From the IMG/VR virus record IMGVR_UViG_2623620491_000015, positions 1-11,850 of that record: a DNA stretch of 11,850 bases. One strand, written 5' to 3'. The translations under genes and the position numbers were made by a program. Source of the DNA: a virus. Lineage: Duplodnaviria > Heunggongvirae > Uroviricota > Caudoviricetes. The notes below the pieces were generated by a model. That model did not search any database. It was not told where the DNA came from and saw only the letters and a list, made by a program, of their open reading frames with translations. Below, in pieces: positions 1-11,850 of the stretch; the first letter of the stretch is position 1, and each line of letters begins with the position of its first letter.

Positions 1-333
1 AAGCTCTAATAGCTCCGCAAATTCGCCTACACGCATCCTGCTGGTTGACTGGCCTATTACCACAAAGCCATTCCCGGAAAGGTTAGGAACAACGTCCTGC
101 TGCTTTAATGCTGCGGTAAACACACACTTCCAGCTTTCTGCATCCAGCCAGCGACCATGCCATTCAACCTGACGAGAGACGTCACCTAAGCAGGCCCATA
201 GCTTCCTGTTTTGGTCTAAGCTGCGGTTGCGTTGCTTAAACTCGACAATGATGTCTAAATCGCATGTCCTAAGGTACTGAATGGCGTTATATCTTATAGA
301 TTCATTGGTAAGGTGATATTTGACACATTTCAT
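1..333 (-). CDS. ninB: NinB (Orf-family recombination mediator), C-terminus runs off the left window edge; N-terminal ~34 aa differ from the lambda-type NinB
   Basis: Minus-strand ATG at 333-331 with GAGG 8 nt upstream. Own translation gives MKCVKYHLTNESIRYNAIQYLRTCDLDIIVEFKQRNRSLDQNRKLWACLGDVSRQVEWHGRWLDAESWKCVFTAALKQQDVVPNLSGNGFVVIGQSTSRMRVGEFAELLEL, open to position 1. From RNRSLDQ onward it matches NinB as I recall it. Not in the ORF track because it is edge-truncated. Confidence 0.75.
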   Translation of the reverse strand, partial: MKCVKYHLTNESIRYNAIQYLRTCDLDIIVEFKQRNRSLDQNRKLWACLGDVSRQVEWHGRWLDAESWKCVFTAALKQQDVVPNLSGNGFVVIGQSTSRMRVGEFAELLEL

Positions 334-826
334 TTTAATACCTCGCAAATTCGCCGAAACATTCATCCGCTTTATTTGCATATACTTTATGAGCTTCCTT
401 TGGGTCATCGTAAAACCCAAGATTAACTTTCCTCTTGTTGATTACGATTTGCGCCCTCCATTTTCTTGATTTCTTATCCCATGAAACGCCTTTATATCCT
501 GATTTGTTATTTGCCTTTTTGTTTACGTTTTGGATGTTTTGAGATCGAGTTGCCAATCTAAGATTTGCTATACGATTGTCATCCCTAACGAGATTTATGT
601 GGTCGATATCACTTTTTGGTAGACTGCCATTCATATAGAGCCACGCCAGCCTGTGTGCCTTATAAAGTTTTCCATCGACTTTTATTACCCAGTAGCCTTC
701 GCTACTCTTATGCCCTGCGATATCCCCAGCATTCATTCTCTGGCATTTCTTTACTTTCCATGTGAATTTCCCTGTTAACTCATCGTAGAGAAGGACTTCT
801 TTTAGTCTCTGCTGAGTTATTTGATT
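232..826 (-). mobile_element. Homing-endonuclease cassette inserted in the 5' part of ninB (HNH-AP2 coding segment plus a replacement ninB 5' end)
   Basis: NinB-like sequence sits on both sides: residues 1-32 at 922..827 and from residue ~35 at 231 downward. The intervening segment is visibly AT-rich compared with flanking DNA and encodes the endonuclease domains plus a new ninB start with its own SD. Boundaries are approximate. Confidence 0.5.
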
Positions 827-922
827 GATTGGTTTGGTTGGGTCTGGAAGGATTTGCTGTACTGCGTGAATAGCGTTCTGCTGATGTGCTGGAGATCGAA
901 TTTCAAAGGTTAGTTTTTTCAT
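335..922 (-). CDS. HNH (HNH_3) + AP2-domain homing endonuclease, fused in frame to the first 32 residues of lambda-type NinB
   Basis: Track ORF 335..940 starts at TTG; the ATG at 922 (MKKLTFEI...) has a purine-rich SD (GGGAGAGGGAAG) just upstream. Motif DIDHINLVRDDNRIANLRLATRSQN is HNH_3-like; SGYKGVSWDKKSRKWRAQIVINKRKVNLGFYDDPKEAHKVYANKA is AP2-like. The first 32 aa read like the NinB N-terminus. Confidence 0.8.
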   Translation of the reverse strand: MKKLTFEIRSPAHQQNAIHAVQQILPDPTKPINQITQQRLKEVLLYDELTGKFTWKVKKCQRMNAGDIAGHKSSEGYWVIKVDGKLYKAHRLAWLYMNGSLPKSDIDHINLVRDDNRIANLRLATRSQNIQNVNKKANNKSGYKGVSWDKKSRKWRAQIVINKRKVNLGFYDDPKEAHKVYANKADECFGEFARY

Positions 923-936
923 GACTTCCCTCTCCC

Positions 937-970
937 CCAAATAAAAAGGCCTGCGATTACCAGCAGGCCT
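937..970 (-). terminator. tR2-like intrinsic terminator between helicase and ninB region
   Basis: Perfect 8-bp inverted repeat aggcctgc / gcaggcct (947-954, 963-970) with an 8-nt loop. On the minus strand it is followed by TTTTATTTGG. Confidence 0.6.
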
Positions 971-995
971 GTTATTAGCTCAGTGATGTAGATGG

Positions 996-2372
996 TCATA
1001 CGTCAGCCCCTTGTGCATATCGTCTGCCACGCGCAGCAGGTGCATTTGATGCTGTGCAAATCTGTCTGGCTTCATCCTGGTCACATGCAACAAAGTGTCC
1101 GTTACAGAACCGCTGGTAAACCGTACCAAGCGAGCCAAAACGGTTTTTCGTCACGATGATTTCAGCAAATGGCGCGGCGCTACTGTTCTCGTCATATACC
1201 GCTTCCCGATAGAGCATGATGATTGAGTCTGCGTCCTGTTCAATGCTTCCTGAATCACGCAAATCTGCGTTTGTCGGGCGTTTGTTTGGTCGCTTCTCAA
1301 CATCGCGCGAAAGCTGACTTAGGGAGATAACAGGCGTTTTCAGGTCTTTCGCCATCGCCTTCAGGCTTCCGGAGATGTGAGCAATTGCTAGGTCGTTGCG
1401 GTCTGCTTTCGGCTTCTCAATCAGGCCAAGATAATCCGCCATGATTAGAGACAGGTTTGGATTTTCCTGTTTATGCCGTTCTGCGATTGAGCGTATTTCT
1501 TCGACCGATAACCGCGAGGCATCGACTACCCATACATCCAAATCTGCAAGCTGACTCATGCCGTTAGCAACACGCGCCCAGCCTTCGTCATCCATCGATG
1601 CAGGATTTCGCAGTACGCTAACCGACATCCTCCCGGCGTTGGCAATGCTTCGCTCTGCAATCTGCAATGCGCTCATTTCCATTGAGAAAATCAATACCCC
1701 GCGCCGGACGTCAGAACCAGGAATAACGCGGCTTGCAACGCCTTCGGCAATCTTCAGCGCCAGTTCGGTTTTCCCCATACCAGGACGAGCAGCGATTATC
1801 ACCAGGTCTTCTGCGTTCATCCCTCCGGTGATGGCATCAAGTTCTTCGATTCCGGTCTTCAGGGTATCGGACTCTTCTCCGTTCCTCAGACGCCTGTCAA
1901 GCGTGTCAGTGTAGTCAGTGATGATTTCCCCTAACCGTACAGGTTTAACCTCGTCACGGGGCTTTCTGATAGCTGAGAGACGTTTTACAAGTTCATCCAT
2001 CGCCTGACTCGATGCGTCGATGGTTCCGCTCTGAATTGGTTCACGCATTTCATCCATGATTTCCAGCACCAGACGGCGGTGATAGTTATCCGCGACCATT
2101 CCGGCATATCCCTTCAGGTTTGCGGCACTCGGGCAGTTTTTGCTGGTCATCAGGATTGACGTGAAATGCTCCTCTCCGCATTCCTCAGCAACCATCAGCG
2201 CGTCGATTAGGTTTCTGTTTCGCGCCTGCTTGCGGATAACCTCGAAGGCTTTCCGGTAGAGCGGAATTGAAAACGCTTCCGGCTCCAGCGTTGCCAGAAC
2301 GTCACTGGCGGTTGGAGTTAATCCACCAATCAGCAAGCCACCGATAACGCTCGCTTCGATATCCTGTCTCAT
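996..2372 (-). CDS. Replicative DNA helicase, DnaB family (P22 gp12-like)
   Basis: 458-aa ORF with Walker A ([15 protein letters not shown]) and DnaB-type RecA-fold motifs ([29 protein letters not shown]). ATG at 2372 overlaps the upstream gene's stop (ATGA). Confidence 0.9.
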
Positions 2373-3316
2373 GCAATCCCCCTGTCTGCAAACTTCCCTT
2401 CCCGTACTCCCGTTAACGAATCTTCCCTCAGCAGGTAATCAAAATCTGCCGTCCAGCCCGTGTCGTTGTCTCCGAAGTAAAACGGCTTGGCCTGATGCAC
2501 AAACGCCCTGACATACGCTCTGAAACCGTCCACGTTTGGCGTTTTCAGTTGCGGAATGATTTTCTTCAGGCGACGTTTGCGTTTCTCGTTGACCGCAACA
2601 GCGTGTGGCAGTCTGTCACCGACTTCGGTGTTGTAGGCATTCAGGAAGGATTCATAGTCGATTCGTTCTGCCTTGCGACGTTCAGGTTTAACCTGCCCAT
2701 CGCCTCCCCCATTGGGGGGTAGGGGGGTATTATTTATATTCTTGTTAATACCTTCTTGTTCATGATGTGCGGTTGTTTGTGCGGCTTCATGTGCGCTTTC
2801 ATGTGCGGCATGTACGCTGAAAGCCGCGCCATTACTGGCTTCGTCATGTGCGGCGTCATGTGCGGTTGTTTGTGCGGCTTCATGTGCGGGTGAATTGTCC
2901 ATTTTTTGAGCATATTCATGGTAATTTGTGATGGTGATCACACGACCTTTTTGCTTCTCTCCATCAATGGTGATCATCCCCTCTTTCACAAAAACCTGAA
3001 GCATCCGCTCAACCTGATCACGGCTTGCCGGCTTGCCATGCCTGTCGCATAACTGAAGACCTAAATCAGCTGCTGTCACAACCAGTTGACCGGGTTGCAG
3101 ATGCCATTCATGACCTTTGAAATTCGCTTTGTATGGCTTTCTGGCGGCATTCAGGAGAAGGTTTTCCCACAGGGTGCGAAGATAAACATCTTTCGCCCAT
3201 GACTGTTTCAGAATGCTCCGGTACAACGGAATGTAACCAGTTTTCTGGTTCTCCATCCTGTTGCTCCTGCGCTCGTGTGCGGCGCTGAAATCGTAGATTT
3301 TTGCTGTGTTGCTCAT
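2369..3316 (-). CDS. Replication initiator protein (lambda O / P22 gp18-like) with a repetitive Ala/His-rich linker
   Basis: 315-aa ORF. The N-terminus [10 protein letters not shown] resembles lambda O (MTNTAKILNF). It sits immediately upstream of, and translationally coupled to, the helicase gene. The internal repeat region coincides with the iteron-like DNA repeats. Confidence 0.8.
2766..2894. repeat. Eight copies of a 12-bp direct repeat TGTGCGGnnnnn in two clusters of four; candidate ori iterons
   Basis: Units at 2766, 2778, 2790, 2802 and 2847, 2859, 2871, 2883 (tgtgcggttgtt, tgtgcggcttca, tgtgcgctttca, ...). A G-rich then AT-rich stretch follows at 2710-2760 (ggggggtaggggggtattatttatattcttgttaata). 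This is the same arrangement as ori-lambda inside O. Confidence 0.55.
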
Positions 3317-3318
3317 AA

Positions 3319-3591
3319 CTACCTGCCTTGACGAAAGACCTTAAGAACATCGTTAAACTGACTTACGGATATGTCTTCTTTGAGCAGCTTTTCCAGAAAT
3401 GCGTTTGGAATGAACGTATATCCATCCTCTTTTGGTAGAGACGGGAGCAACGCCCTCGCCTCAGCCTTCAGAAGCTCAGTTCTGGCAACTTTCACAAAAG
3501 AGATTTGAGTTCTTTCATCAATGGAACGAAGGAAGCGCAAACGCTTAGCTTCTTTGTGTGTATCAGGTGGATTAAAGCCTTTGTTTCGCAT
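3319..3591 (-). CDS. Hypothetical protein (90 aa) between cII and the O-like gene
   Basis: Internal ATG of track ORF 3319..3756 at 3591 with GAGG SD. The upstream part of the track ORF overlaps cII in another frame and is discarded. The stop abuts the O-like start. Confidence 0.55.
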   Translation of the reverse strand: MRNKGFNPPDTHKEAKRLRFLRSIDERTQISFVKVARTELLKAEARALLPSLPKEDGYTFIPNAFLEKLLKEDISVSQFNDVLKVFRQGR

Positions 3592-3602
3592 ATAATTACC
3601 TC

Positions 3603-3669
3603 GTTGGATGTTGTTAAAATTCCATTTGTATTTGATCAGAACGCTCGGTTGCCGCCGGGCGTTTTTTAT
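3603..3669 (+). ncRNA. oop: oop-like antisense RNA overlapping the 3' end of cII
   Basis: Plus-strand TATAAT at 3591-3596. The 3' end CAGAACGCTCGGTTGCCGCCGGGCGTTTTTTATT matches the lambda oop terminator as I recall it. It is antisense to the last ~55 nt of cII. The 5' end is an estimate. Confidence 0.6.
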
Positions 3670-3910
3670 TGGTGAGTCCATCAAGCGCATACTTAAAAGC
3701 CCTGCTAATCGGACTGATATCTGATGCCATTCCGAAAGCACACAAGACCGAGGCAATAAATCTCCAGTCCGTTCTGCTTATCTTCGATTCATGACAGCCA
3801 ATCATCTTTGCCAGACCGCGCTGGGTAAGTGTTGACAGGTTGATGAGTAAATCGGTTTCTGCGCGATCAACATCGCGCTGTGATAGTTTGCTGTAACTTG
3901 TTTGTTCCAT
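3614..3910 (-). CDS. cII: Transcriptional activator CII
   Basis: 98 aa. The C-terminus LTNKKRPAATERSDQIQMEF and the central ...ESKISR... match lambda CII. Position between cro and the replication genes fits. Confidence 0.9.
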   Translation of the reverse strand: MEQTSYSKLSQRDVDRAETDLLINLSTLTQRGLAKMIGCHESKISRTDWRFIASVLCAFGMASDISPISRAFKYALDGLTNKKRPAATERSDQIQMEF

Positions 3911-3925
3911 TTCTTACTATTTCCA
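3888..3925 (+). promoter_or_regulatory. PRE-like promoter with CII-box repeats (TTGC-N6-TTGT) overlapping the cII start
   Basis: ttgc tgtaac ttgt at 3888-3901, immediately beside the cII ATG (complement of 3908-3910). Same geometry as lambda PRE, oriented toward cro and cI. Confidence 0.5.
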
Positions 3926-3974
3926 TAGGTAAATAATCACTAATACTCATCTTTCGATGAGCGATTAATTAGTT

Positions 3975-4010
3975 ACCGCGTTGTCGGCGGTGCAGATTGA
4001 TAAAGAGCGG
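3975..4010 (-). promoter_or_regulatory. nutR (boxA + P22-type boxB)
   Basis: Minus strand reads CCGCTCTTTA (boxA, 4001-4010), then ACCGCCGACAACGCGGT (boxB hairpin, 3975-3991), between cro and cII. Confidence 0.7.
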
Positions 4011-4019
4011 ATCCGCTTA

Positions 4020-4235
4020 TTAAGCGGCTTTGTGTTCCGGCGGGAACACGTCATCAAGACTGACTTTTGCGCCTAACTTGTTTAGGCACGCAACAAGAGC
4101 ACGGCATGTTTTAAGGTCTGGGAAGCGACGACCAGATTCCCAATGTCCGATAGCTCCCTGTGTGCATCCAACCGCCTTAGCAAGTGTTGTTTGAGAGATA
4201 TTCAGTGACTCTCGATATTTTCGTAGGTTGCTCAT
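4020..4235 (-). CDS. cro: Cro-like HTH repressor (71 aa)
   Basis: Internal ATG at 4235 with GGAGGG SD directly upstream. HTH region SQTTLAKAVGCTQGAIGHWESGRR. Divergent from cI across the operator region. The 5' extension of the track ORF is discarded. Confidence 0.8.
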   Translation of the reverse strand: MSNLRKYRESLNISQTTLAKAVGCTQGAIGHWESGRRFPDLKTCRALVACLNKLGAKVSLDDVFPPEHKAA

Positions 4236-4346
4236 ATGCCCTCCATAGTAACCATGAAACAATAATACGATATGTACTTTTGGAATGCAAACAAAAAATA
4301 CATCTTGTGCATGGATGGTTTTAGTACATAGCGTAATAATAAGGAT
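4236..4346. promoter_or_regulatory. OR region: divergent PR/PRM with repeated ~17-bp operator motif
   Basis: Operator-like sites at 4262-4280 and 4321-4339 are inverted copies (AGTACATAnCGTAnTA) and are partly palindromic. PR candidate on the minus strand: -35 TTGCAT (complement of 4285-4290), 17 bp, -10 TATTAT (complement of 4262-4267). cI may be nearly leaderless. Confidence 0.6.
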
Positions 4347-5006
4347 ATGAAAATGAAATGGTATGAACTGGCTAGATCCAGAATGAAAGAGCTCGGCATA
4401 ACTCAAGAGAAGTTAGCTGAAGAGCTTGGTATGACGCAGGGTGGAATTGGTCACTGGTTGCGCGGATCTCGTCATCCATCTCTTGACGAGATTGGTGTGG
4501 TGTTTAAATACCTTGGTATTGATAACGTCTCATTCAACCACGACGGTACATTTTCACCTGCTGGCGAATACTCATCTGCCCCCGTTAAAAAACAATATGA
4601 GTACCCTGTTTTTTCTCATGTTCAGGCCGGGATGTTCTCGCCTGAGCTTAGAACCTTTACCAAAGGTGATGCGGAGAGATGGGTCAGCACAACCAAAAAA
4701 GCCAGTGATTGTGCGTTTTGGCTTGAAGTTGAAGGTAATTCCATGACCGCACCAACAGGATCCAAGCCAAGCTTTCCTGACGGAATGTTAATTCTCGTTG
4801 ACCCTGAGCAGGCTGTTGAGCCAGGAGATTTCTGCATAGCCAGACTTGGCGGTGACGAGTTTACCTTCAAGAAACTGATCAGGGATAGCGGTCAGGTGTT
4901 CCTACAACCACTAAACCCGCAATATCCAATGATCCCATGCAATGATAGCTGTTCCGTAGTAGGGAAAGTTATCGCCAGCCAGTGGCCTGAAGAGACATTT
5001 AGTTAA
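4347..5006 (+). CDS. cI: CI repressor (LexA-like S24 autocleavage domain); lambda-type C-terminal domain with a non-lambda N-terminal HTH domain
   Basis: The C-terminal ~125 aa ([22 protein letters not shown]...[11 protein letters not shown]) are near-identical to lambda CI as I recall it. N-terminal HTH is [25 protein letters not shown]. Alternative start ATG at 4353 with AAGGA SD. Confidence 0.9.
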
Positions 5007-5038
5007 CAGCCTCACCACTCTAAAACACACAACAATAA

Positions 5039-5066
5039 CCCGACCTTAGCGTCGGGTTTTCTTTTT
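5039..5066 (+). terminator. Intrinsic terminator downstream of cI
   Basis: cccgac-cttagc-gtcggg hairpin followed by TTTTCTTTTT. Confidence 0.7.
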
Positions 5067-5085
5067 CCAAAATATAAATCAATAA

Positions 5086-5160
5086 AATACAAAGTGTTAT
5101 AAAAAACCAACCACATTTAGAACATTTTGTATTGACTCAATAAAGTACACATCGTACTAT
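5086..5160 (+). promoter_or_regulatory. OL/PL: leftward early promoter with operator sites
   Basis: -35 TTGACT (5132-5137), 17 bp, -10 TACTAT (5155-5160). Site AGTACACATCGTACTAT (5144-5160) matches the OR motif. Inverted pair aatacaaagtgtt (5086-5098) / aacattttgtatt (5121-5133) lies upstream. Confidence 0.6.
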
Positions 5161-5206
5161 TTAGCCATCAGCAGGAAGCTGGAAGCCAAACGGAACAGAT
5201 TGGCAG

Positions 5207-5240
5207 GCTCTTTAACTTCGATGGGGCGCTGACAAAGCGC
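5207..5240 (+). promoter_or_regulatory. nutL (boxA GCTCTTTAAC + P22-type boxB GCGCTGACAAAGCGC)
   Basis: boxA-like at 5207-5216 and a perfect 5-bp stem / 5-nt loop hairpin at 5226-5240, in the PL leader upstream of N. Confidence 0.75.
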
Positions 5241-5359
5241 AAACAGATACCAAACGAGATGGGTTTGGCGGTGATGTGAATTGCAGCTGCAACGACAGCA
5301 ACCAGAAGATCAGCACCTGGCGCATCACCACCAAAGCCATTTCACATGAGGAAAATATC

Positions 5360-5668
5360 ATGACGGTAATCGTGTACGGAAAATCAACATTTGCAGGAAA
5401 TGCCAAAACTCGCCGTCATGAGCGGCGCAGAAAGCTGGCTATCGAGCGTGATGCTATATGCAACATCATCGATTCGATCTTCGGCACAGACAGTGAGGAA
5501 CCTGTTCAGGAAGCCCCGAGAAAGCGTTTAAGCATTTCTGAAAAAGCAATATCACTCGGCATCATTAGCAAATCAAATACAGATGCGAATAGCGGAAGCG
5601 TTTGTTTGCCTGAAGTTGCACTGTATGCTGCTGGTTACAGAAGGCAAAAACTAATTACAGCGAGGTAA
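5360..5668 (+). CDS. N: Antitermination protein N (P22 gp24-type arginine-rich motif)
   Basis: ATG at 5360 with GAGGA SD. N-terminus MTVIVYGKSTFAGNAKTRRHERRRKLAIER matches the boxB-binding peptide of P22 N. The upstream part of the track ORF is discarded. Confidence 0.85.
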   Translation: MTVIVYGKSTFAGNAKTRRHERRRKLAIERDAICNIIDSIFGTDSEEPVQEAPRKRLSISEKAISLGIISKSNTDANSGSVCLPEVALYAAGYRRQKLITAR

Positions 5669-5670
5669 AA

Positions 5671-5949
5671 ATGAAGCCTAGCATAACAATCAAGCCAGCG
5701 AGAGATAATAGCAGGAACCGCCGCAGAGAGGCCAGGAAGGCAGAAAGAGCAGAGAAGGAAAACAAGAGCCGGGAGGAGAGAAAGGCAGAGATTTTGGAAA
5801 AAGGAGGATTGGCTGCCGTGAGGGGTGAAAAAGCAGCTGAATTAGCAGTAGCTCACGAAAAGACAGAGATTGACAATAATTCTGGTGGAGATGCAATGTT
5901 TAAAGTTGTCAATCACGCCCATCAACGAAACCCCAAAAAGAAATGGTAA
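5671..5949 (+). CDS. Hypothetical highly charged (Arg/Lys/Glu-rich) 92-aa protein
   Basis: ATG 3 nt after the N stop with GAGG SD. The DNA is strongly purine-rich on the coding strand. Ends just before a terminator. Confidence 0.55.
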   Translation: MKPSITIKPARDNSRNRRREARKAERAEKENKSREERKAEILEKGGLAAVRGEKAAELAVAHEKTEIDNNSGGDAMFKVVNHAHQRNPKKKW

Positions 5950-5952
5950 TCA

Positions 5953-5977
5953 ACCCGTCCAAGACGGGTTTTTTATT
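5953..5977 (+). terminator. Intrinsic terminator (tL1-like)
   Basis: cccgtc-caa-gacggg hairpin followed by TTTTTTATT. Confidence 0.7.
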
Positions 5978-6006
5978 GCAAGCAAACCACTTATTTGAGA
6001 TGAGAT

Positions 6007-6372
6007 ATGGAAGAACAAGCAAACAAGATTCTCGTAGAACTACTGCAAAAAGCCAGCAATGGAATAGACGCGGCTGTTTCATTTAGCCAGGCACAGATTC
6101 CTGATGTCATCCATCAGCTTTTGATGTGGCACGCCGTATCATCAGCTGGAATTCAGGCTATCTGTGTATTGGTGATTATAGCGTGTGTTTATCTGATGAT
6201 TTTTGCATGGAATAAAGGAGATGATGCGGATGTTGTTCTTTTATCGCTACTTGTAACATCAGGAATAGCGATTACTTCTATTGTTGTTTTCTTCAATTAT
6301 TTCGACTGGCTGAAAATCTGGCTTGCTCCAAAACTTTACCTTATCGAATATGCAGCATCATTGGTTAAGTAA
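6007..6372 (+). CDS. Hypothetical small membrane protein (two predicted TM helices)
   Basis: 121 aa. Hydrophobic segments IQAICVLVIIACVYLMIFAW and VVLLSLLVTSGIAITSIVVFF. Sits where lambdoid phages carry sieB/ral-type accessory genes. Weak SD. Confidence 0.55.
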   Translation: MEEQANKILVELLQKASNGIDAAVSFSQAQIPDVIHQLLMWHAVSSAGIQAICVLVIIACVYLMIFAWNKGDDADVVLLSLLVTSGIAITSIVVFFNYFDWLKIWLAPKLYLIEYAASLVK

Positions 6373-6376
6373 TTTC

Positions 6377-6402
6377 AGGCCGCATAGTCGGCCTTCATTT
6401 TT
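6377..6402 (+). terminator. Intrinsic terminator
   Basis: aggccg-catagt-cggcct hairpin followed by TCATTTTT. Confidence 0.6.
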
Positions 6403-6404
6403 GG

Positions 6405-6547
6405 CATAAACAACAGAATAAACACTGCACTGTGTATTCATTCCAACGAGTGAATACACGGAGCAATGTCGCTCGTAACTAAACAGGAGCCGACTTGTTC
6501 TGATTATTGGAAATCTTCTTTGCCCTCCAGTGTGAGGGCATTTTTTT
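6405..6547 (+). ncRNA. Candidate structured non-coding RNA or leader bounded by two terminators
   Basis: No ORF. 9-bp perfect inverted repeat gtgtattca / tgaatacac (6432-6440, 6451-6459), additional pairing acgag / ctcgt, and a terminal intrinsic terminator gccctc-cagtgt-gagggc + TTTTTTT (6522-6547). Confidence 0.35.
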
Positions 6548-6559
6548 GACGGAGGAAAT

Positions 6560-6871
6560 ATGAAATTACGTGTCTGGCATATCCCGCAAGTACCTATGAA
6601 GCCGTTCATTGTAGAAGTGGCAAGTGTTGAAGAGGGTGTTCGCCTGATGGACGCACTGGCTGATTATGACGCCTTTCAGTATGACAACAACATCAAGCCT
6701 GATTACTGCAATGCTAACGGCCTTGAGATGTGGGATGAGAGCCTTACCGATGAAGATTTATCAGAGATGGGGCTTACTGATCGCTGGGTGGATTGGTACA
6801 GCGAATGCCAATGTTACGACGACCCACGTAAATATCTCGAAAGCCTGAAAGAAGAAACATCAGCCGCCTAA
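6560..6871 (+). CDS. Hypothetical acidic 103-aa protein
   Basis: ATG with GGAGG SD. Strongly acidic composition (many D/E, Trp-rich). Sits in the ea10/ral-equivalent position. Confidence 0.65.
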   Translation: MKLRVWHIPQVPMKPFIVEVASVEEGVRLMDALADYDAFQYDNNIKPDYCNANGLEMWDESLTDEDLSEMGLTDRWVDWYSECQCYDDPRKYLESLKEETSAA

Positions 6872-6946
6872 GCGCGGCTTTACCGCATACCAATAACGCT
6901 TCACTCGAGGCGTTTTCGTTATGCAATCAAATATAAGGAGTTACCC

Positions 6947-7081
6947 ATGATGCACTTTCAGCTCGCGGGTAGCGGCGTCATGTCCGCTTTCTACCCGCAC
7001 GAATCTGAATTATCACGCCGAGTTAAACAATTAATCAGAGCAGCAAAGAAACAACTGGAGGCGTTATGCGCAATGAAATAG
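6947..7081 (+). CDS. cIII: CIII-like FtsH-inhibitor peptide (44 aa)
   Basis: Not in the track (<60 aa). AAGGAG SD 7 nt upstream. MMHFQLAGSGVMSAFYPHESELSRRVKQLIRAAKKQLEAL resembles the lambda CIII core (AIAGWPVAGCPSESLLERITRKLRDGWKRL). Confidence 0.7.
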   Translation: MMHFQLAGSGVMSAFYPHESELSRRVKQLIRAAKKQLEALCAMK

Positions 7082-7218
7082 CCATTAATCACCAGATGCT
7101 TCGTGCGGCACAAAACAAAGCAGTAATAGCCAGATTTATTGGTGATTCAAAAATGTGGCTTGAAGCAAATAAAGCGATGAAATCAGCTATCAACCTTCCG
7201 TGGTATCGCAGGAAATGA
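7066..7218 (+). CDS. kil: Kil-like peptide (50 aa), putative host cell-division inhibitor
   Basis: Not in the track. GGAGG SD; the start overlaps the cIII-like 3' end. Motif ARFIGDSKMW resembles lambda Kil as I recall it. Synteny cIII then kil. Confidence 0.5.
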   Translation: MRNEIAINHQMLRAAQNKAVIARFIGDSKMWLEANKAMKSAINLPWYRRK

Positions 7219-7293
7219 GTTTTACAGATAACTGGTCAGACGAAGAATTCATTCGTCAGATGAAAGAATTAATCGGTAACGAAGGAGATATTC

Positions 7294-7464
7294 ATGTCAC
7301 TTGCAACCACAGTGAAGGAGAGCAAGTTACAGAGACGCATGTACACGCAGCAGGCGTTAATGTATCGCCAGAAGGGAGATCGTGAAGGTGTTCGCGTATT
7401 TTTAAATGCGGCAAAGACTGAAGTATTAAATCAGCGTTATTTCCTTGGGCCGTGTCCATTCTGA
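7294..7464 (+). CDS. Hypothetical 56-aa protein (Arf-like position upstream of the annealing protein)
   Basis: AAGGAG SD 6 nt upstream of the ATG. Plausible helical sequence MSLATTVKESKLQRRMYTQQALMYRQKGDREGVRVFLNAAKTEVLNQRYFLGPCPF. A competing ORF 7215..7385 in another frame is coupled to kil by ATGA. Confidence 0.5.
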   Translation: MSLATTVKESKLQRRMYTQQALMYRQKGDREGVRVFLNAAKTEVLNQRYFLGPCPF

Positions 7465-7472
7465 GGTGAATT

Positions 7473-8180
7473 ATGGATTTGAATAAATTCGATGAGCCAT
7501 TCAGCCCTGAAGATATCGAATGGCGAATACAGCAAAGCGGTAAAACACGCGATGGCAAAGTGTGGGCTATGGTGCTGGCTTATGTAACGAACCGGGCAAT
7601 CATGAAACGCCTGGACGATGTTTGCGGCAAAGCAGGATGGCGCAATGAATACCGCGATATTCCCAACAACGGCGGCGTTGAATGCGGCATATCAATAAAG
7701 ATTGATTCCGAATGGGTAACCAAATGGGATGCTGCTGAAAACACGCAGGTAGAAGCCGTCAAAGGTGGTCGTTCCGGTGCAATGAAGCGCGCTGCCGTTC
7801 AGTGGGGAATCGGTCGGTATCTGTATAACCTTGAGGAAGGTTTCGCACAAACATCTCTCGATAAAAAGCAGGGATGGCACAGGGCAAAACTCAAGGATGG
7901 AACAGGATTTTACTGGCTCCCTCCATCGCTGCCGGGATGGGCAATACCAGCATCAGATAACAAACCATCACCAGAAAATACCAACCAGAAATCTCCATCG
8001 GTTGACTGCGAACAAATCCTGAAAGACTTCAGCGATTATGCGTCAACAGAAACTGACAAGAAAAAACTCATCGAGCGTTATCAGCGTGACTGGCAATTAA
8101 TGGCTGGCAATGAGGAGGCGCAGGCTAAATGCGTTCAGGTAATGAACATCAGAGTTAACGAACTAAAACAGGCGGCATAA
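7473..8180 (+). CDS. Single-strand annealing protein, Rad52/Sak family
   Basis: 235 aa with Rad52-like motifs (RLDDVCGKAGW ... GAMKRAAVQWGIGRYLY). Directly precedes ssb. Confidence 0.7.
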   Translation: MDLNKFDEPFSPEDIEWRIQQSGKTRDGKVWAMVLAYVTNRAIMKRLDDVCGKAGWRNEYRDIPNNGGVECGISIKIDSEWVTKWDAAENTQVEAVKGGRSGAMKRAAVQWGIGRYLYNLEEGFAQTSLDKKQGWHRAKLKDGTGFYWLPPSLPGWAIPASDNKPSPENTNQKSPSVDCEQILKDFSDYASTETDKKKLIERYQRDWQLMAGNEEAQAKCVQVMNIRVNELKQAA

Positions 8181-8687
8181 ATGGCAAGCAGAGGCGTAAA
8201 TAAGGTGATTATCCTTGGTCGGGTAGGACAAGACCCGGAAGTTCGATACTCACCATCAGGTACAGCGTTCGCTAACCTGACAATAGCCACGTCAGAACAA
8301 TGGCGAGATAAAAATACTGGCGAGCAAAAGGAATTGACTGAATGGCATCGTGTTGCTGTATCCGGGAAACTGGCTGAGGTCGTGGGGCAGTATGTGAAAA
8401 AAGGTGATCAGATTTATTTCGAGGGAATGCTGAGAACCAGAAAGTGGAAAGACCAGTCAGGGCAAGACCGTTACACAACCGAGGTTCATGTCGGAATTAA
8501 TGGCGTGATGCAAATGCTTGGCGGCATTGGCGACAGCAAACAACAAGCAGCCAGCAGGCAATCACAGAAGCCACAGCAGCAATCATCACCAGCACAACAC
8601 AACGAACCTCCGATGGATTTTGACGACGATATACCCTTTGCACCAGTAACTCTCCCCTTCCCTCGTCACGCTATTCACGCAATTTAA
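8181..8687 (+). CDS. ssb: Single-stranded DNA-binding protein with a 15-aa extension after the DDDIPF motif
   Basis: OB-fold N-terminus ([23 protein letters not shown]...), Q/S-rich linker, then MDFDDDIPF followed by [15 protein letters not shown] before the stop. Confidence 0.85.
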
Positions 8688-8700
8688 TCAGGAGAAAATC

Positions 8701-8997
8701 ATGCCAGCGCCTCAGTATGGTGCGGATGACCCGCGCCGCTGTTCCGGCAATTCCGTATCGGAGGTGCTGGATAAATTCAGGAAAAACTACGACCGGATAA
8801 TGTCGCTACCGCAGGAAACGAAAGAGGAAAAGGAATTTCGCCATTGTATATGGCTTGCAGAGAAAGAAGAACGCGAGCGAATTTACCAGACATCAATCCG
8901 ACCATTCCGCAAAGCCACATATACCCACTTCCCTGAATATATCGACCCTCGCCTGCGTAATTACCGCTCACGCTATGGCGCTATCAGTAATGACTGA
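8701..8997 (+). CDS. Hypothetical protein (98 aa)
   Basis: ATG with AGGAG SD. Confidence 0.6.
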
Positions 8998-9007
8998 GGA
9001 ATTTACT

Positions 9008-9172
9008 ATGAGAGGACTTGCATACAATCCCGGCATTCTTCCGGCAGAAATGATTATTCGCCAACGCGTAAAGCCAATGCCATCGAGAGAGGAATTGCTT
9101 AAGAGAAATTCTTTTCAATCAGTAAATCAAAACAAATATCTGAATGCGATGTTGCGGAGTGGGAAGAAATGA
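9008..9172 (+). CDS. Hypothetical protein (54 aa)
   Basis: ATG at 9008 with GAGGA SD. The upstream part of track ORF 8855..9172 overlaps the previous gene and is discarded. Confidence 0.5.
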
Positions 9173-9645
9173 AACAAATGTCACTAATTGAGATGGATGG
9201 ATTCCTGAAAGGTAAATGCATCCCCCGAGATTTAAAGGTTAACGAAACAAACGCTGAATATCTGGTGCGTAAGTTCGGTGAACTTGAATCAAAACTAGAA
9301 ACGGCGTTGCGGGAGTGTCGTTCTGCTGGAATCACGATTGATAACCTTGAGGCCAAGTGCGCGGCGCTGGCTGCTGAAAAAGAGACATTTGCTGTCGAGT
9401 GTGCGGCCGCAAAAATCGCCATTGCATACCTGAAATCAGGACGACAGGATTTTTCGCTTAACACCCCAGCCACTGACGCTTTCCTGGCTGAAGTCCGGGC
9501 TAAGGCGTTTGATGACCTTTGCGCGGCGTTCGTTAAGCACGCGTCGGTGTCCGGGCTGGACGATGGCGACTGCGTTACGGTGAAAGAGGCGACTGACGCC
9601 CTGCTGCATTGTGCGGAACAGCTTCACGAGGGAGTGCATTCATGA
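9169..9645 (+). CDS. Hypothetical protein (158 aa)
   Basis: ATGA overlap with the upstream gene. Predicted helical, Ala-rich. Confidence 0.6.
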
Positions 9646-9875
9646 GCAACCTACTACCATGTCCATTCTGTGGCGGCGCAGCGCACGTTGCCAGCGAAGC
9701 AGATCACCCTGAATATGGCTCTGGCGGTCGATTCTATTTCGTTCGATGCGGTACGTGTCGCGCTCAATCTGGTAGCAAATATGCAGCGCCTGGAAATGAC
9801 TGCGCGATTTTTTATTCAGAGGTTAGAGCAGAGTGGAATCAGCGAGCAAAGGAGGCAACCAGTGAGCCAGATTGA
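9642..9875 (+). CDS. lar: Lar-family restriction alleviation protein (zinc-ribbon)
   Basis: ATGA overlap with the upstream stop. [12 protein letters not shown] ... RCGTCR ... EWNQRA matches the Lar/RalR pattern (CPFCG ... C..C ... WN.R). Confidence 0.65.
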   Translation: MSNLLPCPFCGGAAHVASEADHPEYGSGGRFYFVRCGTCRAQSGSKYAAPGNDCAIFYSEVRAEWNQRAKEATSEPD

Positions 9876-10413
9876 TTATCAGGCACTGCGTGCTAAGGCA
9901 GAAAAAGCAACGTGTGGTGTGTGGTCGCTCGAATATGGAGAGAGCCGATTTGATTGTGATGATGCGCTAATTCATCGTGACGTTGTTGGATATCTTCCCA
10001 TTTGCAGAATTGAAGGAGCGCATCCAGAAAGCGGTTTCGATGAAGATTTCCAAATGGAACAGCAGGCCAATGCTGAATTCATCGCCGCAGCCAATCCGGC
10101 TACTGTGCTGGCATTACTGGATGAACGGGAAAGGAACCAGCAATACATCAAATCCCGCGACCAGGAGAACGAGGAGATTGCGTTAACGGTAGGGAAGTTG
10201 CGCGTTGAGCTTGAGGCAGAAAAACAGCGGGCAAAGGATCTGTTTATGGAAAATGCTCGGCTTAAGTCAGGTATAGCCGGTCTGATACACCTCGGTATTC
10301 GATATGCAGATGTTGAGGTCATGAGAATTGCTGGAGATGCCCAGCTTTCTACCCCATGCACTGACAGCATCATAAACAGCATTGCAACAGGCATTCGCAT
10401 CAAAGGAGAGTGA
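9862..10413 (+). CDS. Ead/Ea22-like protein
   Basis: GTG start with AAGGAGG SD 7 nt upstream. N-terminus SQIDYQALRAKAEKATCGVW is typical of the Ea22-like family. The part of the track ORF upstream of 9862 overlaps lar in another frame and is discarded. Confidence 0.65.
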   Translation: MSQIDYQALRAKAEKATCGVWSLEYGESRFDCDDALIHRDVVGYLPICRIEGAHPESGFDEDFQMEQQANAEFIAAANPATVLALLDERERNQQYIKSRDQENEEIALTVGKLRVELEAEKQRAKDLFMENARLKSGIAGLIHLGIRYADVEVMRIAGDAQLSTPCTDSIINSIATGIRIKGE

Positions 10414-10615
10414 TATGAGCAGGAATATGGGTTTGTAAAAGATAACGCTTGTGAAAATGCTGAATTTCGCGTCGTCTTCACAGCGATGCCAGAGTCTGTA
10501 GTGTCAGATGATGACCGTACTCAAACATCGGGTTGAGTATTATCTTACTGTTTCTTTACATAAACATTGCTGATACCGTTTAGCTGAAACGACATACATT
10601 TCAAGGAGTTTATAA

Positions 10616-10897
10616 ATGCGTATCAATGAGTTAGAGTCTGAGCAAAAAGATTGGGCGTTATCAATGTTGTGCAGATCCGGTGTCTTGTCTCCATGCAGAC
10701 ATCACGAAGGTGTTTATGTAGATGAAGGTATAGATATAGAGTCGGCATACAAATATTCAATGAAGGTTTATAAGTCTAATGAAGACAAATCCCCATTCTG
10801 CAATGTGCGAGAAATGACTGATACCGTGCAAAATTATTATCACGAGTACGGTGGAAACGATACTTGCCCTCTCTGTGCAAAACATATAGATGATTAA
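10616..10897 (+). CDS. Hypothetical Cys-rich 93-aa protein in an AT-rich island (moron-like)
   Basis: AAGGAG SD. Visibly AT-rich compared with flanking DNA. Cysteines include a C-terminal CPLC pair. Followed by an intrinsic terminator. Confidence 0.6.
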   Translation: MRINELESEQKDWALSMLCRSGVLSPCRHHEGVYVDEGIDIESAYKYSMKVYKSNEDKSPFCNVREMTDTVQNYYHEYGGNDTCPLCAKHIDD

Positions 10898-10917
10898 ACC
10901 AAATATTACATAACAAT

Positions 10918-10944
10918 CCTCGCACTCGCGGGGATTTCTTTTAT
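10918..10944 (+). terminator. Intrinsic terminator
   Basis: cctcgc-actc-gcgggg hairpin followed by ATTTCTTTTAT. Confidence 0.6.
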
Positions 10945-10985
10945 CTGAACTCGCTACGGCGGGTTTTGTTTTATGGAGATGATAA

Positions 10986-11153
10986 ATGCACTTCCGAGTC
11001 ACAGGTGAATGGAATGGAGAGCCATTCAACAGGGTTATCGAAGCAGAGAACATCAACGACTGCTATGACCACTGGATGCTATGGGCGCAGATAGCACATG
11101 CAGACGTAACCAATATTCGAATTGAAGAACTGAAAGAACACCAAGCCGCCTGA
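10986..11153 (+). CDS. Hypothetical protein (55 aa)
   Basis: Not in the track. ATG with GGAG upstream. The stop lies inside the terminator hairpin. Confidence 0.45.
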   Translation: MHFRVTGEWNGEPFNRVIEAENINDCYDHWMLWAQIAHADVTNIRIEELKEHQAA

Positions 11154-11168
11154 TGGCGGTTTTTTATT
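11146..11168 (+). terminator. Intrinsic terminator
   Basis: ccgcc-tgat-ggcgg hairpin followed by TTTTTTATT. Confidence 0.6.
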
Positions 11169-11179
11169 GGAGACAAGAA

Positions 11180-11524
11180 ATGTCAGATTTGGCTATGAAG
11201 GTTTTGAAATGGCAATCAACTGGCGATGTTGGCATCAGTAGCGCAACTCTTGCCTCAATCGCATGTGGCCTGAAAAAGAATATCTATGGTCATCACTTCG
11301 GCGCTCCCCATGACGCAGCAGACTTTCGGCGATGCGTTGCACTTGTTGAGCAGATTCCAGAAATCAGAGATTCATTCGACAAGGTTGCAAAGCGCGTTCC
11401 GGTATTCAAAGGCATCCTCAACGAATGGGATTCCCTCGTCGCTCTGTTGAAGTCTGAAATGAAGACGTACGGGAACAAAGCACCAGAGACTTACAGAAGA
11501 ATCAGCGAGCTACGCAAGGACTAA
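11180..11524 (+). CDS. Hypothetical protein (114 aa)
   Basis: ATG at 11180 with GGAGA SD. The 9-codon upstream extension in the track overlaps the terminator and is discarded. Confidence 0.6.
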   Translation: MSDLAMKVLKWQSTGDVGISSATLASIACGLKKNIYGHHFGAPHDAADFRRCVALVEQIPEIRDSFDKVAKRVPVFKGILNEWDSLVALLKSEMKTYGNKAPETYRRISELRKD

Positions 11525-11584
11525 CCACAGCCTCACACTCGATGAGGCCTGTTCATTGCTCAATGATATCCAGACCTACCATCG

Positions 11585-11607
11585 CCGCATCAATGCGGTT
11601 TTTTATT
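11585..11607 (+). terminator. Intrinsic terminator
   Basis: ccgcat-ca-atgcgg dyad followed by TTTTTTATT. Confidence 0.55.
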
Positions 11608-11649
11608 GCCTGATTTACAGGTTCGATTCCCTATTCGGAGATAGCACTC

Positions 11650-11850
11650 ATGCAACACGAACTACAGCCTGATTCACTGGTTGATTTGAAATTCATCATG
11701 GCCGATACTGGCTTCGGTAAGACCTTCATCTATGACCGGATTAAGTCCGGCGACCTGCCTAAAGCCAAAGTTATCCACGGGCGAGCAAGATGGTTATATC
11801 GTGACCATTGTGAATTCAAAAATAAGCTCTTAAGCCGCGCCAATGGGTAA
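11650..11850 (+). CDS. xis: Excisionase / AlpA-family DNA-binding protein
   Basis: 66 aa. FIYDRIKSGDLPKAKVIHGRARW is an AlpA/Xis-type winged-helix motif. The stop codon is the last three bases of the window; an integrase is expected just beyond. Confidence 0.7.
   Translation: MQHELQPDSLVDLKFIMADTGFGKTFIYDRIKSGDLPKAKVIHGRARWLYRDHCEFKNKLLSRANG

Follow-up and report, generated by a model that had tools for sequence, protein, structure and literature searches.

The closest described system is the nun gene of phage HK022. Exclusion of lambda is the one known function of its product, and this specificity has been called unique (PMC4496710; PMC5386594). Structural work on Nun lists N97, H98, H100, Q101, R102, K106, K107 and W108 as making contact with the polymerase rudder, the RNA or the DNA, or as needed in vivo, and the level of Nun in HK022 lysogens is low, about 100 nM (PMC5386594). 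Here we describe a relative of nun in a window of 11,850 nucleotides (positions 1 to 11,850 of the Caudoviricetes record IMGVR_UViG_2623620491_000015), which comprises the immunity and early region of an Escherichia coli lambdoid prophage. The closest match of the whole window was a prophage of E. coli BS15R-A, with 98.5 % identity over 80 % coverage. A first-pass annotation, made from the letters alone, had placed two accessory genes after the antiterminator gene N, and their positions hold: on the plus strand, the open reading frame (ORF) ORF92 at 5671..5949 (92 amino acids, ATG start) and ORF121 at 6007..6372 (121 amino acids, ATG start). The best explanation of the locus is that ORF92 is probably a Nun-family arrest factor aimed at phages with HK620-type nut sites and made together with N from the early-left promoter pL, and that ORF121 is independent of it.

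By homology, ORF92 is a member of the Nun family with conserved arrest residues. The profile phrog_5632, 'Nun-like transcription termination factor', covered residues 1-92 with its positions 4-111 of 112 (E 1.5e-29). BLASTP aligned ORF92 to HK022 Nun with 33 % identity over 85 amino acids (E 1e-10), pairing the arginine-rich motif (ARM) SRNRRREARKAERAEK with SRDRRRIARWEKRIAY and the C-terminal tail DAMFKVVNHAHQRNPKKKW with DVMHRVVNHAHQRNPNKKW; Nun in the elongation complex, chain N of the cryo-EM structure PDB 6ALG, was matched with an E value of 5.4e-5. The ARM of ORF92, RDNSRNRRREARKAERAEKENK, extends over about residues 11-32 and the arrest tail occupies residues 74-92. SRNRRREARK of ORF92 pairs with SRDRRRIARW of Nun in BLASTP as well as in an alignment of 17 family sequences, and the register on which these two agree was used; a MAFFT alignment of only the close relatives and HK022 Nun left the ARMs out of register. 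The equivalents of the eight Nun residues named above are all identical in ORF92 (N81, H82, H84, Q85, R86, K90, K91 and W92), and V80, N81, H82, A83, H84, R86, K91 and W92 are invariant across the 17 family representatives. On the strength of this homology with HK022 Nun, ORF92 would be expected to arrest transcription. The first-pass annotation recognised no family for either gene, a statement that has to be withdrawn for both, as ORF92 matches the Nun family and ORF121 matches PHROG 3054 over the full length. No model of Pfam, NCBIfam or PADLOC detected ORF92, hence its RefSeq label 'hypothetical protein'; the miss is uninformative, because even HK022 Nun itself escapes the NCBIfam and PADLOC models. 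The family is already labelled 'Nun-like' by database curators. A second N-type antiterminator, i.e., an N paralogue instead of an arrest factor, could be suspected from the ARM and from a weak match to the N-like profile phrog_271 (E 7.3e-5). This match is confined to residues 5-67, however, Pfam N_peptide (PF25694) did not match ORF92 at all, and the C-terminal third is the arrest tail of Nun and not the polymerase-binding region of N proteins, so that we consider an N paralogue most improbable.

Translation of ORF92 is very probable. The gene starts 2 nucleotides past the stop codon of N, with a GAGG Shine-Dalgarno sequence 5 nucleotides ahead of its ATG, and the frame and the length of 92 amino acids are kept in homologues of 45-86 % identity. 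In the tail VVNHAHQR, the changes between the window and the related loci L003 and L007 are mainly synonymous and in third positions (GTT/GTA/GTG, GTC/GTG/GTA, GCC/GCT/GCC, CAT/CAT/CAC, CAA/CAA/CAG and CGA/CGA/AGA). Shine-Dalgarno sequence, kept frame and length and synonymous changes identify a genuine protein-coding gene. The high charge and the purine-rich strand bias that had been noticed are real: 42 % of the residues are charged (11 R, 13 K, 12 E and 3 D), rising to 56 % in the first 45 amino acids, and the purine fraction is 0.69, reaching 0.79 over 5700-5830. Stretches of 279 nucleotides in the window have a median purine fraction of 0.52 and a 99th percentile of 0.685, which puts ORF92 into the top 1 %; the bias stems from codons of the AGA/AAG/GAA/GAG type. 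ORF92 is present in 33 of 5426 complete E. coli genomes; in E. coli W and in UMNK88 the gene is identical.

The RNA target proposed for ORF92 derives from the relationships of its ARM. The first 45 amino acids were compared with 14 N-termini of N proteins by Smith-Waterman alignment, with the maximum over composition-preserving shuffles as null. N of the HK620 type was the best match with a score of 67 against a null of 36.8 (standard deviation 5.1), whereas the resident N, of P22 type, scored 33 and thus at the null level; BLASTP of ORF92 against the resident N gave no alignment. The subfamily members of L003 and L007 behaved alike, with scores of 76 and 84 against HK620-type N versus 33 and 35 against their own N, which is of a third type (null about 35 ± 5). 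A profile of the ORF92 subfamily retrieved from a library of 1.84e9 proteins an N-terminal fragment of an HK620-type N (P0148, E 3.4e-4). The link between ORF92 and HK620-type N is based on these shuffle-controlled scores together with the profile hit. The resemblance extends over the N-terminal 45 residues or so, with DNSRNRRREARKAERAEK in ORF92 facing DDNARNRRRARRQAQREQ in N, followed by RKAEILEKGG facing RKIALKLSGC. The C-terminal halves are unrelated, one being the polymerase-binding region of N and the other the arrest tail of Nun, and the predicted activities are opposite, antitermination versus arrest. HK620-type N (MTVVITYLADDNARNRRRARRQAQREQ...) pairs with the boxB CCCGCCGAAAUGCGGG and is carried by HK620, HK140, mEp213, HK630, CUS-3, N7 and several Stx1a and Stx2c phages; DNA of HK620-type nutL and N occurs in 778 of the 5426 complete E. 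coli genomes. An ARM that is unlike the resident N and closest to HK620-type N makes phages with HK620-type nut sites the likely targets. Thus ORF92 most likely arrests RNA polymerase on such phages, as judged from its sequence relationships.

The host phage itself presents no such site. Searches at up to 3 mismatches found no HK620-type boxB anywhere in the window, and nutL and nutR are both of P22 type. In nutL, boxA GCTCTTTAAC (5207..5216, plus strand) was read from the sequence, and the same element precedes boxB in the annotated nutL of HK620. The nutL boxB GCGCTGACAAAGCGC (GCGCUGACAAAGCGC; 5226..5240, plus strand) is an exact match at a single site, with a 5-bp stem, a GACAA loop and a predicted folding energy of -8.5 kcal/mol. 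Its assignment to the P22 type is by the nutL sequence of P22. nutR (3975..4009, minus strand), read from the sequence downstream of cro, consists of boxA CGCTCTTTA at 4009-4001 and a P22-type boxB ACCGCCGACAACGCGGT at 3991-3975, with a predicted fold of -6.7 kcal/mol. The residues R11-D-N-S-R-N-R-R-R19 are invariant in the seven sequences of the ORF92 subfamily, and the neighbouring N changes its class among them: it is of P22 type in the window and of an RRRERRA type, with the boxB GGCUGAAAAGCC (GAAA tetraloop), in L003 and L007. This constancy bears on the idea that ORF92 is a brake on its own phage: as a competitor of the resident N for the nut sites of this phage, it would arrest a fraction of the pL/pR transcripts and so adjust the N-dependent cascade or shift the decision between lysis and lysogeny. 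Apparent co-transcription with N at a spacing fit for translational coupling would suit such a brake, as would the recurrence of the tandem of N and a Nun-like gene in many lambdoid lineages, expected of a regulatory pair. At L032, moreover, there is moderate similarity between the ARM of the Nun-like protein and the adjacent N (46 against a null average of 27.8), and the N proteins of L003 and L007 have an RRRE core in common with their Nun-likes. But the N-terminus of ORF92 compares with the resident N at no more than the null level and without a BLASTP alignment, the subfamily ARM RDNSRNRRRE stays constant while the adjacent N and boxB switch between the P22 and the GAAA-tetraloop type, and the sole neighbour with the same ARM as its Nun-like gene, at L091, is not N-like by PHROG. 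In addition, nun mutants of HK022 grow and lysogenise normally (PMC4496710). A brake on own transcription is therefore in our view unlikely.

Several points weigh against an arrest factor directed at HK620-type phages. With composition correction, BLASTP of ORF92 against HK620-type N gave an E value of 11, and the subfamily member P0132 reached only 0.10 (46 % identity over 63 amino acids). The RRRE core shared by the N ARMs of L003 and L007 (RRRERRA type) with the ARMs of their Nun-likes makes some self-binding possible in these two loci. In the tail, H93 of Nun is replaced by Phe77 and R94 by Lys, and the terminal Ser109 is missing. ORF92 also lacks the residue set for recognition of lambda boxB: in the BLASTP alignment Lys29 holds the stacking position and Glu25 stands opposite K35 of Nun. 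In the boxB complexes of Nun and N, it is Y39 of Nun, or W18 of lambda N, that provides the aromatic stacking on the boxB loop. With Lys29 in this place, RNA recognition is not simply copyable from the complexes of Nun and lambda N. Lys29 and Glu25 lower the claim that ORF92 excludes lambda, not the claim that it is a Nun. Finally, no promoter above background was found upstream of ORF92 (5400-5700), the best score being 8.0 bits against a 90th percentile of the null of 9.4; the same scan scores the P_Nun region of HK022 poorly and thus decides neither for nor against such a promoter. Classical exclusion by the prophage would be no more than a possibility for ORF92.

The nun gene of HK022 reportedly has a constitutive promoter of its own, a finding attributed to King et al. 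2000. ORF92 and ORF121, for which no promoter of their own was detected, look driven by pL. A pL-like promoter (TTGACT-17-TACTAT; 5132..5160, plus strand) was located by consensus scan and is the top score between 4900 and 6600 in a position-weight scan (13.3 bits). It is followed by nutL and by N (5360..5668, plus strand), which has the P22-type arginine-rich motif GNAKTRRHERRRKLAIERD and was identified by PF25694 N_peptide (E 1.9e-38) and phrog_271 (E 2e-35), as the first-pass annotation had it. ORF92 thus lies in the first unit downstream of pL, with N between promoter and gene and ahead of the first terminator. This tL1-like intrinsic terminator (5952..5977, plus strand; terminator scan) has an 8-bp stem with 5 GC pairs, followed by TTTTTTATT, and a predicted fold of -13.3 kcal/mol; the Nun-like genes of L003, L007 and L018 likewise have an equivalent terminator on their 3' side. 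ORF92 would be made together with N from pL, at a spacing fit for translational coupling, and would act early after infection or induction; a low level of expression in the lysogen is possible. By homology with HK022 Nun, the conserved C-terminal tail VVNHAHQRNPKKKW would insert into the cleft of transcribing E. coli RNA polymerase and block translocation, whereupon the early transcription of the rival would stop. Nut sites with HK620-type boxB would be the likely targets, and the P22-type nut sites of the host phage would be spared. The predicted timing, read from the gene order, suggests that ORF92 may serve chiefly in the immediate-early phase, against rivals that infect or are induced at the same time.

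This expression pattern could also serve a general host takeover, in which ORF92 arrests host and any rival polymerases without a specific nut site and the phage's own N-modified complexes are protected. At high concentration HK022 Nun arrests complexes without nut (Kd about 300 nM; PMC5386594), over-expressed Nun is toxic (PMC4496710), and ORF92 is part of the immediate-early transcript of a strong promoter and precedes its first terminator, for which reason it is predicted to reach levels far above the roughly 100 nM of HK022 lysogens. The invariance of R11 to R19 in the seven subfamily sequences argues, on the other side, for a specific RNA target, and phages with tandem Nun-likes of different ARMs are better explained by specific weapons; the protection of N-modified complexes from Nun is itself a supposition. 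We regard host takeover as improbable. Host shut-off and a brake on own transcription both rank well below heterotypic exclusion.

The wider family supports an exclusion factor directed at other phages. Word-indexed searching of proteins yielded no more than 11 close relatives of ORF92. To reach the rest of the family, 1.84 billion representatives had to be searched exhaustively with a profile, and even this gave only 23 hits. All share the tail D[AVI]M..VVNHAHQR.P.KKW(S), but differ in their N-termini, some of which resemble the P22 N motif (P0141), that of phage 21 (P0149) or HK022 Nun (P0142 and P0150). In ORF43 of the Hafnia phage Pocitis76 a lambda-N-like motif, MDAQARRREKRKAKQEEWKK, is joined to the Nun tail. 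Altogether the arrest tail was found joined to at least 8 visibly different ARMs, several of which match the N classes of lambda, P22, phage 21 and HK620. About 85 loci were fetched via the tail motif and their neighbouring genes were read. Twelve Nun-like genes outside the HK022 arrangement sit just 3' of a small ORF, 10 of them within 8 nucleotides. These amount to 9 distinct tandems, since the window, L003 and L007 have a subfamily in common and the tandems of L015 and L035 are met again as L036/L037 and Pocitis76. The upstream ORF is N-like in 11 of the 12 (8 distinct tandems, the window included), as called by PF25694 for the window, L003 (weak) and L007 and by phrog_271 for 8 of the 9 others. 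In all of the 11 confirmed pairs the ARM of the Nun-like protein had a better match than the adjacent N, and most neighbours scored at the null level of the shuffles. The Nun-like protein of L015 scored 112 against the N of a different phage class versus 16 against its neighbour, that of L035 72 against lambda N versus 26. At L091, the only case of the same motif in the neighbour, this neighbour is not N-like by PHROG.

The lambda-specific Nun of HK022 type was seen at 65 loci. It follows a phage-21-type N (MVTIVWKESKGTAKSRYKARRAELIAER) at 50 of these and an HK620-type N at one; N is missing from 14, and a lambda-type N was seen at no locus of the 65. The arrangement of HK022, without N, thus accounts for 14 of the 65. 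Phage-21-type N with the canonical Nun was recorded at L016 and 49 other IMG/VR loci (L043-L098). In the cultured phage Pocitis76 (L102, OL512804, 620-1560; also L035, 2120-3060), N is followed by two tandem Nun-likes with different ARMs; ORF42 has another motif than ORF43 and the slightly altered tail VVNHASQRNPKLKW, and both are annotated as 'transcriptional regulator'. As the ARMs do not match the adjacent N, the simplest reading is that Nun-likes are aimed at the nut RNAs of other phages and not at their own. We found no description of the family or of this pattern of tails and ARMs in the literature on Nun homologues and 'Nun-like' proteins, of which most subscription journals lay outside the coverage.

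Some loci of the survey have composite structures. P0145 (124 amino acids) has an N-like N-terminal motif and the N-type middle 'ERAAILFANEF', and ends in the Nun arrest tail. L029 holds at 2550-3270 three consecutive small ORFs related to ARMs or Nun, possibly a frameshifted Nun-like gene. P0145 and L029 may be intermediates of recombination between N and Nun. On the metagenomic contig L026 (1647-2318), N is followed by a Nun-like gene, a short N-like ORF of 80 amino acids with a P22-type C-terminus, and an ORF121 homologue.

Compared with HK022 Nun, ORF92 is alike in its nearly identical C-terminal tail, which keeps all arrest residues, and in the location of the gene in the first unit after pL, followed by an intrinsic terminator. 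It is shorter, with 92 instead of 109-112 amino acids and a linker reduced by 17 residues. Its ARM is of another class (DNSRNRRRE...) without the stacking aromatic residue, and its predicted target is the HK620-type boxB, not that of lambda. The gene lies directly after N and is apparently co-transcribed with it. ORF92 is thus predicted to differ from the founder in specificity, besides genomic arrangement. Henthorn & Friedman in 1996 reportedly obtained nun-N hybrid genes in the laboratory. The natural Nun-likes are modular like these hybrids, with an RNA-targeting N-terminus and an effector C-terminus, e.g., ORF43 of Pocitis76, but they are natural genes. A more far-reaching view, which we put forward as tentative, takes Nun as the founder of a family of retargetable arrest weapons. 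A polymerase-jamming tail would be combined with an ARM from the N of a rival, normally in an operon of N and Nun and sometimes in pairs; ORF92 would be the member against the HK620 type, fired from pL in the first minutes that follow infection or SOS induction and hitting co-infecting or co-induced lambdoid competitors and, at high dose, host transcription, with the phage's own N-modified polymerases spared.

The first-pass annotation had proposed ORF92 and ORF121 as candidates for exclusion or defence that together form a module. The first part stands for ORF92, as the founder of its family is a superinfection-exclusion protein; the joint module does not, and a defence role of ORF121 is only a possibility. 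The two genes are likewise neighbours at L002 (E. coli W) and L021, a variant of the ORF121 family with 149 amino acids follows ORF92 in L024, and L026 has an ORF121 homologue near a Nun-like gene, as a two-gene module would predict. The two genes are, however, separated by the strong terminator at 5952-5977, and the similarity to sequenced phages starts only at 5982-6001, past this terminator, which fits ORF92 and ORF121 as separate units of a mosaic. Copies of ORF92 with 100 % identity are followed by at least five different genes, among them ORF121, its 149-amino-acid variant and three unrelated ones, and unrelated genes also stand downstream of the Nun-likes of L003 and L007. Conversely, none of the 181 phage records with the ORF121 family has ORF92-like DNA or a close relative of ORF92. 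The module is already largely refuted by this gene distribution, and we give it very little credence. The slot directly after N is indeed variable and accessory, as had been proposed: the genes next to identical ORF92 copies vary, and a homologue of the P22 exclusion protein gp17 is encoded downstream of ORF121 at 6560-6871.

Between the terminator after a Nun-like gene and the next gene lies a conserved junction, gcaagc..ccacttat.tgag.tgagatATG, regardless of the identity of that next gene (5982-6006 in the window, 5300-5335 in L003). The matching stretch of Sf6 is annotated 'bsq4; boundary sequence'. The junction at 5982-6006 is probably a recombination joint of the mosaic. A second intrinsic terminator follows ORF121 (6377..6402, plus strand, predicted fold -9.7 kcal/mol) and a third lies at 6521-6547, which makes three within 600 nucleotides. 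No plus-strand ORF was called in the stretch 6403-6520 (about 150 nucleotides) between terminators.

ORF121 belongs to PHROG 3054, the family of Sf6 gene 34 (phrog_3054, E 6.2e-47, residues 1-121 on profile positions 1-137 of 137). The two transmembrane (TM) helices behind a soluble N-terminal part that had been noticed from the sequence were borne out: in a Kyte-Doolittle plot, windows of 19 residues exceed 1.6 in two hydrophobic segments with their centres at residues 47-63 and 83-90, and AlphaFold2 predicted a helical hairpin (helices 2-70, 74-97 and 100-120) with values of the predicted local distance difference test of 82-92 over the TM part. Relatives form at least 574 clusters, for which the sources give only the names 'hypothetical', 'phage transmembrane protein' and, in Sf6, 'Gene 34 protein'. 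By tblastn the family occurs in the 181 phage records mentioned, including virulent Schitoviridae, Justusliebigvirus and many Vibrio and Pseudomonas phages; virulent phages carry these genes in early regions. The Sf6 gene 34 protein is a full-length homologue with 52.5 % identity in the same slot after N in P22-like and lambdoid phages, without notable difference. In the alignment, which reaches from E. coli to Vibrio phages, strong conservation is seen in the soluble helices at the N-terminus (1-45) and the C-terminus (99-121), and the TM hairpin and loop are variable. Conserved soluble ends and a variable TM hairpin suggest a membrane-anchored module that contacts a conserved partner; the positive-inside rule yields conflicting topologies between subfamilies.

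No promoter above background was found between the terminator at 5952-5977 and the ATG of ORF121. With a strong terminator upstream and no promoter in between, ORF121 should need N for its expression, and this indicates an early lytic function rather than one expressed by the prophage. ORF121 would thus be a delayed-early, N-dependent protein of the inner membrane. With Pfam, NCBIfam and PADLOC there was nothing beyond noise (PADLOC 2TM effectors, E 0.065-0.078); Foldseek against viral structures gave only uncharacterised family members, and a profile search of the PDB as well as Pfam scans of 33 family members no functional lead. No similarity in sequence, profile or fold to SieA, SieB, Imm, RexB or the 2TM effectors of PADLOC was detected. 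Small size, early expression and the inner membrane are common to ORF121 and T4 Imm, P22 SieA and SieB and lambda SieB, and in lambdoid phages the gene occupies the sieB/ral slot; the likeness is one of position and size only, and for ORF121 no promoter of its own was found. It is a doubtful guess, drawn from size, timing and position, that ORF121 might use its conserved soluble helices for a function at the infected cell's membrane, e.g., blocking secondary DNA entry like T4 Imm and P22 SieA. A class II holin or pinholin was considered and rejected: ORF121 lies in the early-left operon after N, and the genes of virulent phages lie in early regions and not among lysis genes. HK620 hkaQ, the gene after N in HK620, is not a homologue of ORF121. 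The literature on Sf6 gene 34 and hkaQ, under the same coverage of journals, yielded no paper describing the family.

The remaining genes of the window are those of a lambdoid early region. On the plus strand, a LexA-like repressor (4347-5006) and a terminator precede the pL-like promoter, nutL, N, ORF92, ORF121 and the P22 gp17 homologue, and beyond the latter follow a Rad52-type recombinase, SSB and homologues of Abc2, Ea22 and Ea8.5. The minus strand carries cro, nutR, cII, an O-type replication gene and a DnaB-type helicase. The O-like protein (2369-3316, minus strand, PF04492) has an unusual repetitive linker rich in His and Ala at about residues 130-185. An ORF of 201 amino acids on the minus strand (335-940) encodes an endonuclease with HNH_3 and AP2 domains (PF13392, E 9.8e-17; PF00847, E 1.1e-6). 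Its start, MKKLTFEIRSPAHQQNAIHAVQQILPDPTKPI, is recognisable as the N-terminus of NinB, and at the equivalent position E. coli W has an intact NinB. The ORF appears to be a homing endonuclease that has entered ninB or been joined to it.

For phage biology, the ORF121 family is among the more widespread phage membrane proteins without an assigned function. The usual arrangement in the loci examined is a Nun-like gene directly after an N of a different class, and each Nun-like variant yields a prediction of which boxB is bound and which phages are excluded. The Nun-like family would thus offer, from nature, a collection of specific peptide-RNA pairs in which the peptide is joined to a module for polymerase arrest. 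In E. coli with several prophages, among them carriers of Stx phages with HK620-type N, factors of this kind could determine the winning prophage after induction. The pattern turns Nun from a single-case phenomenon into a broader and testable one.

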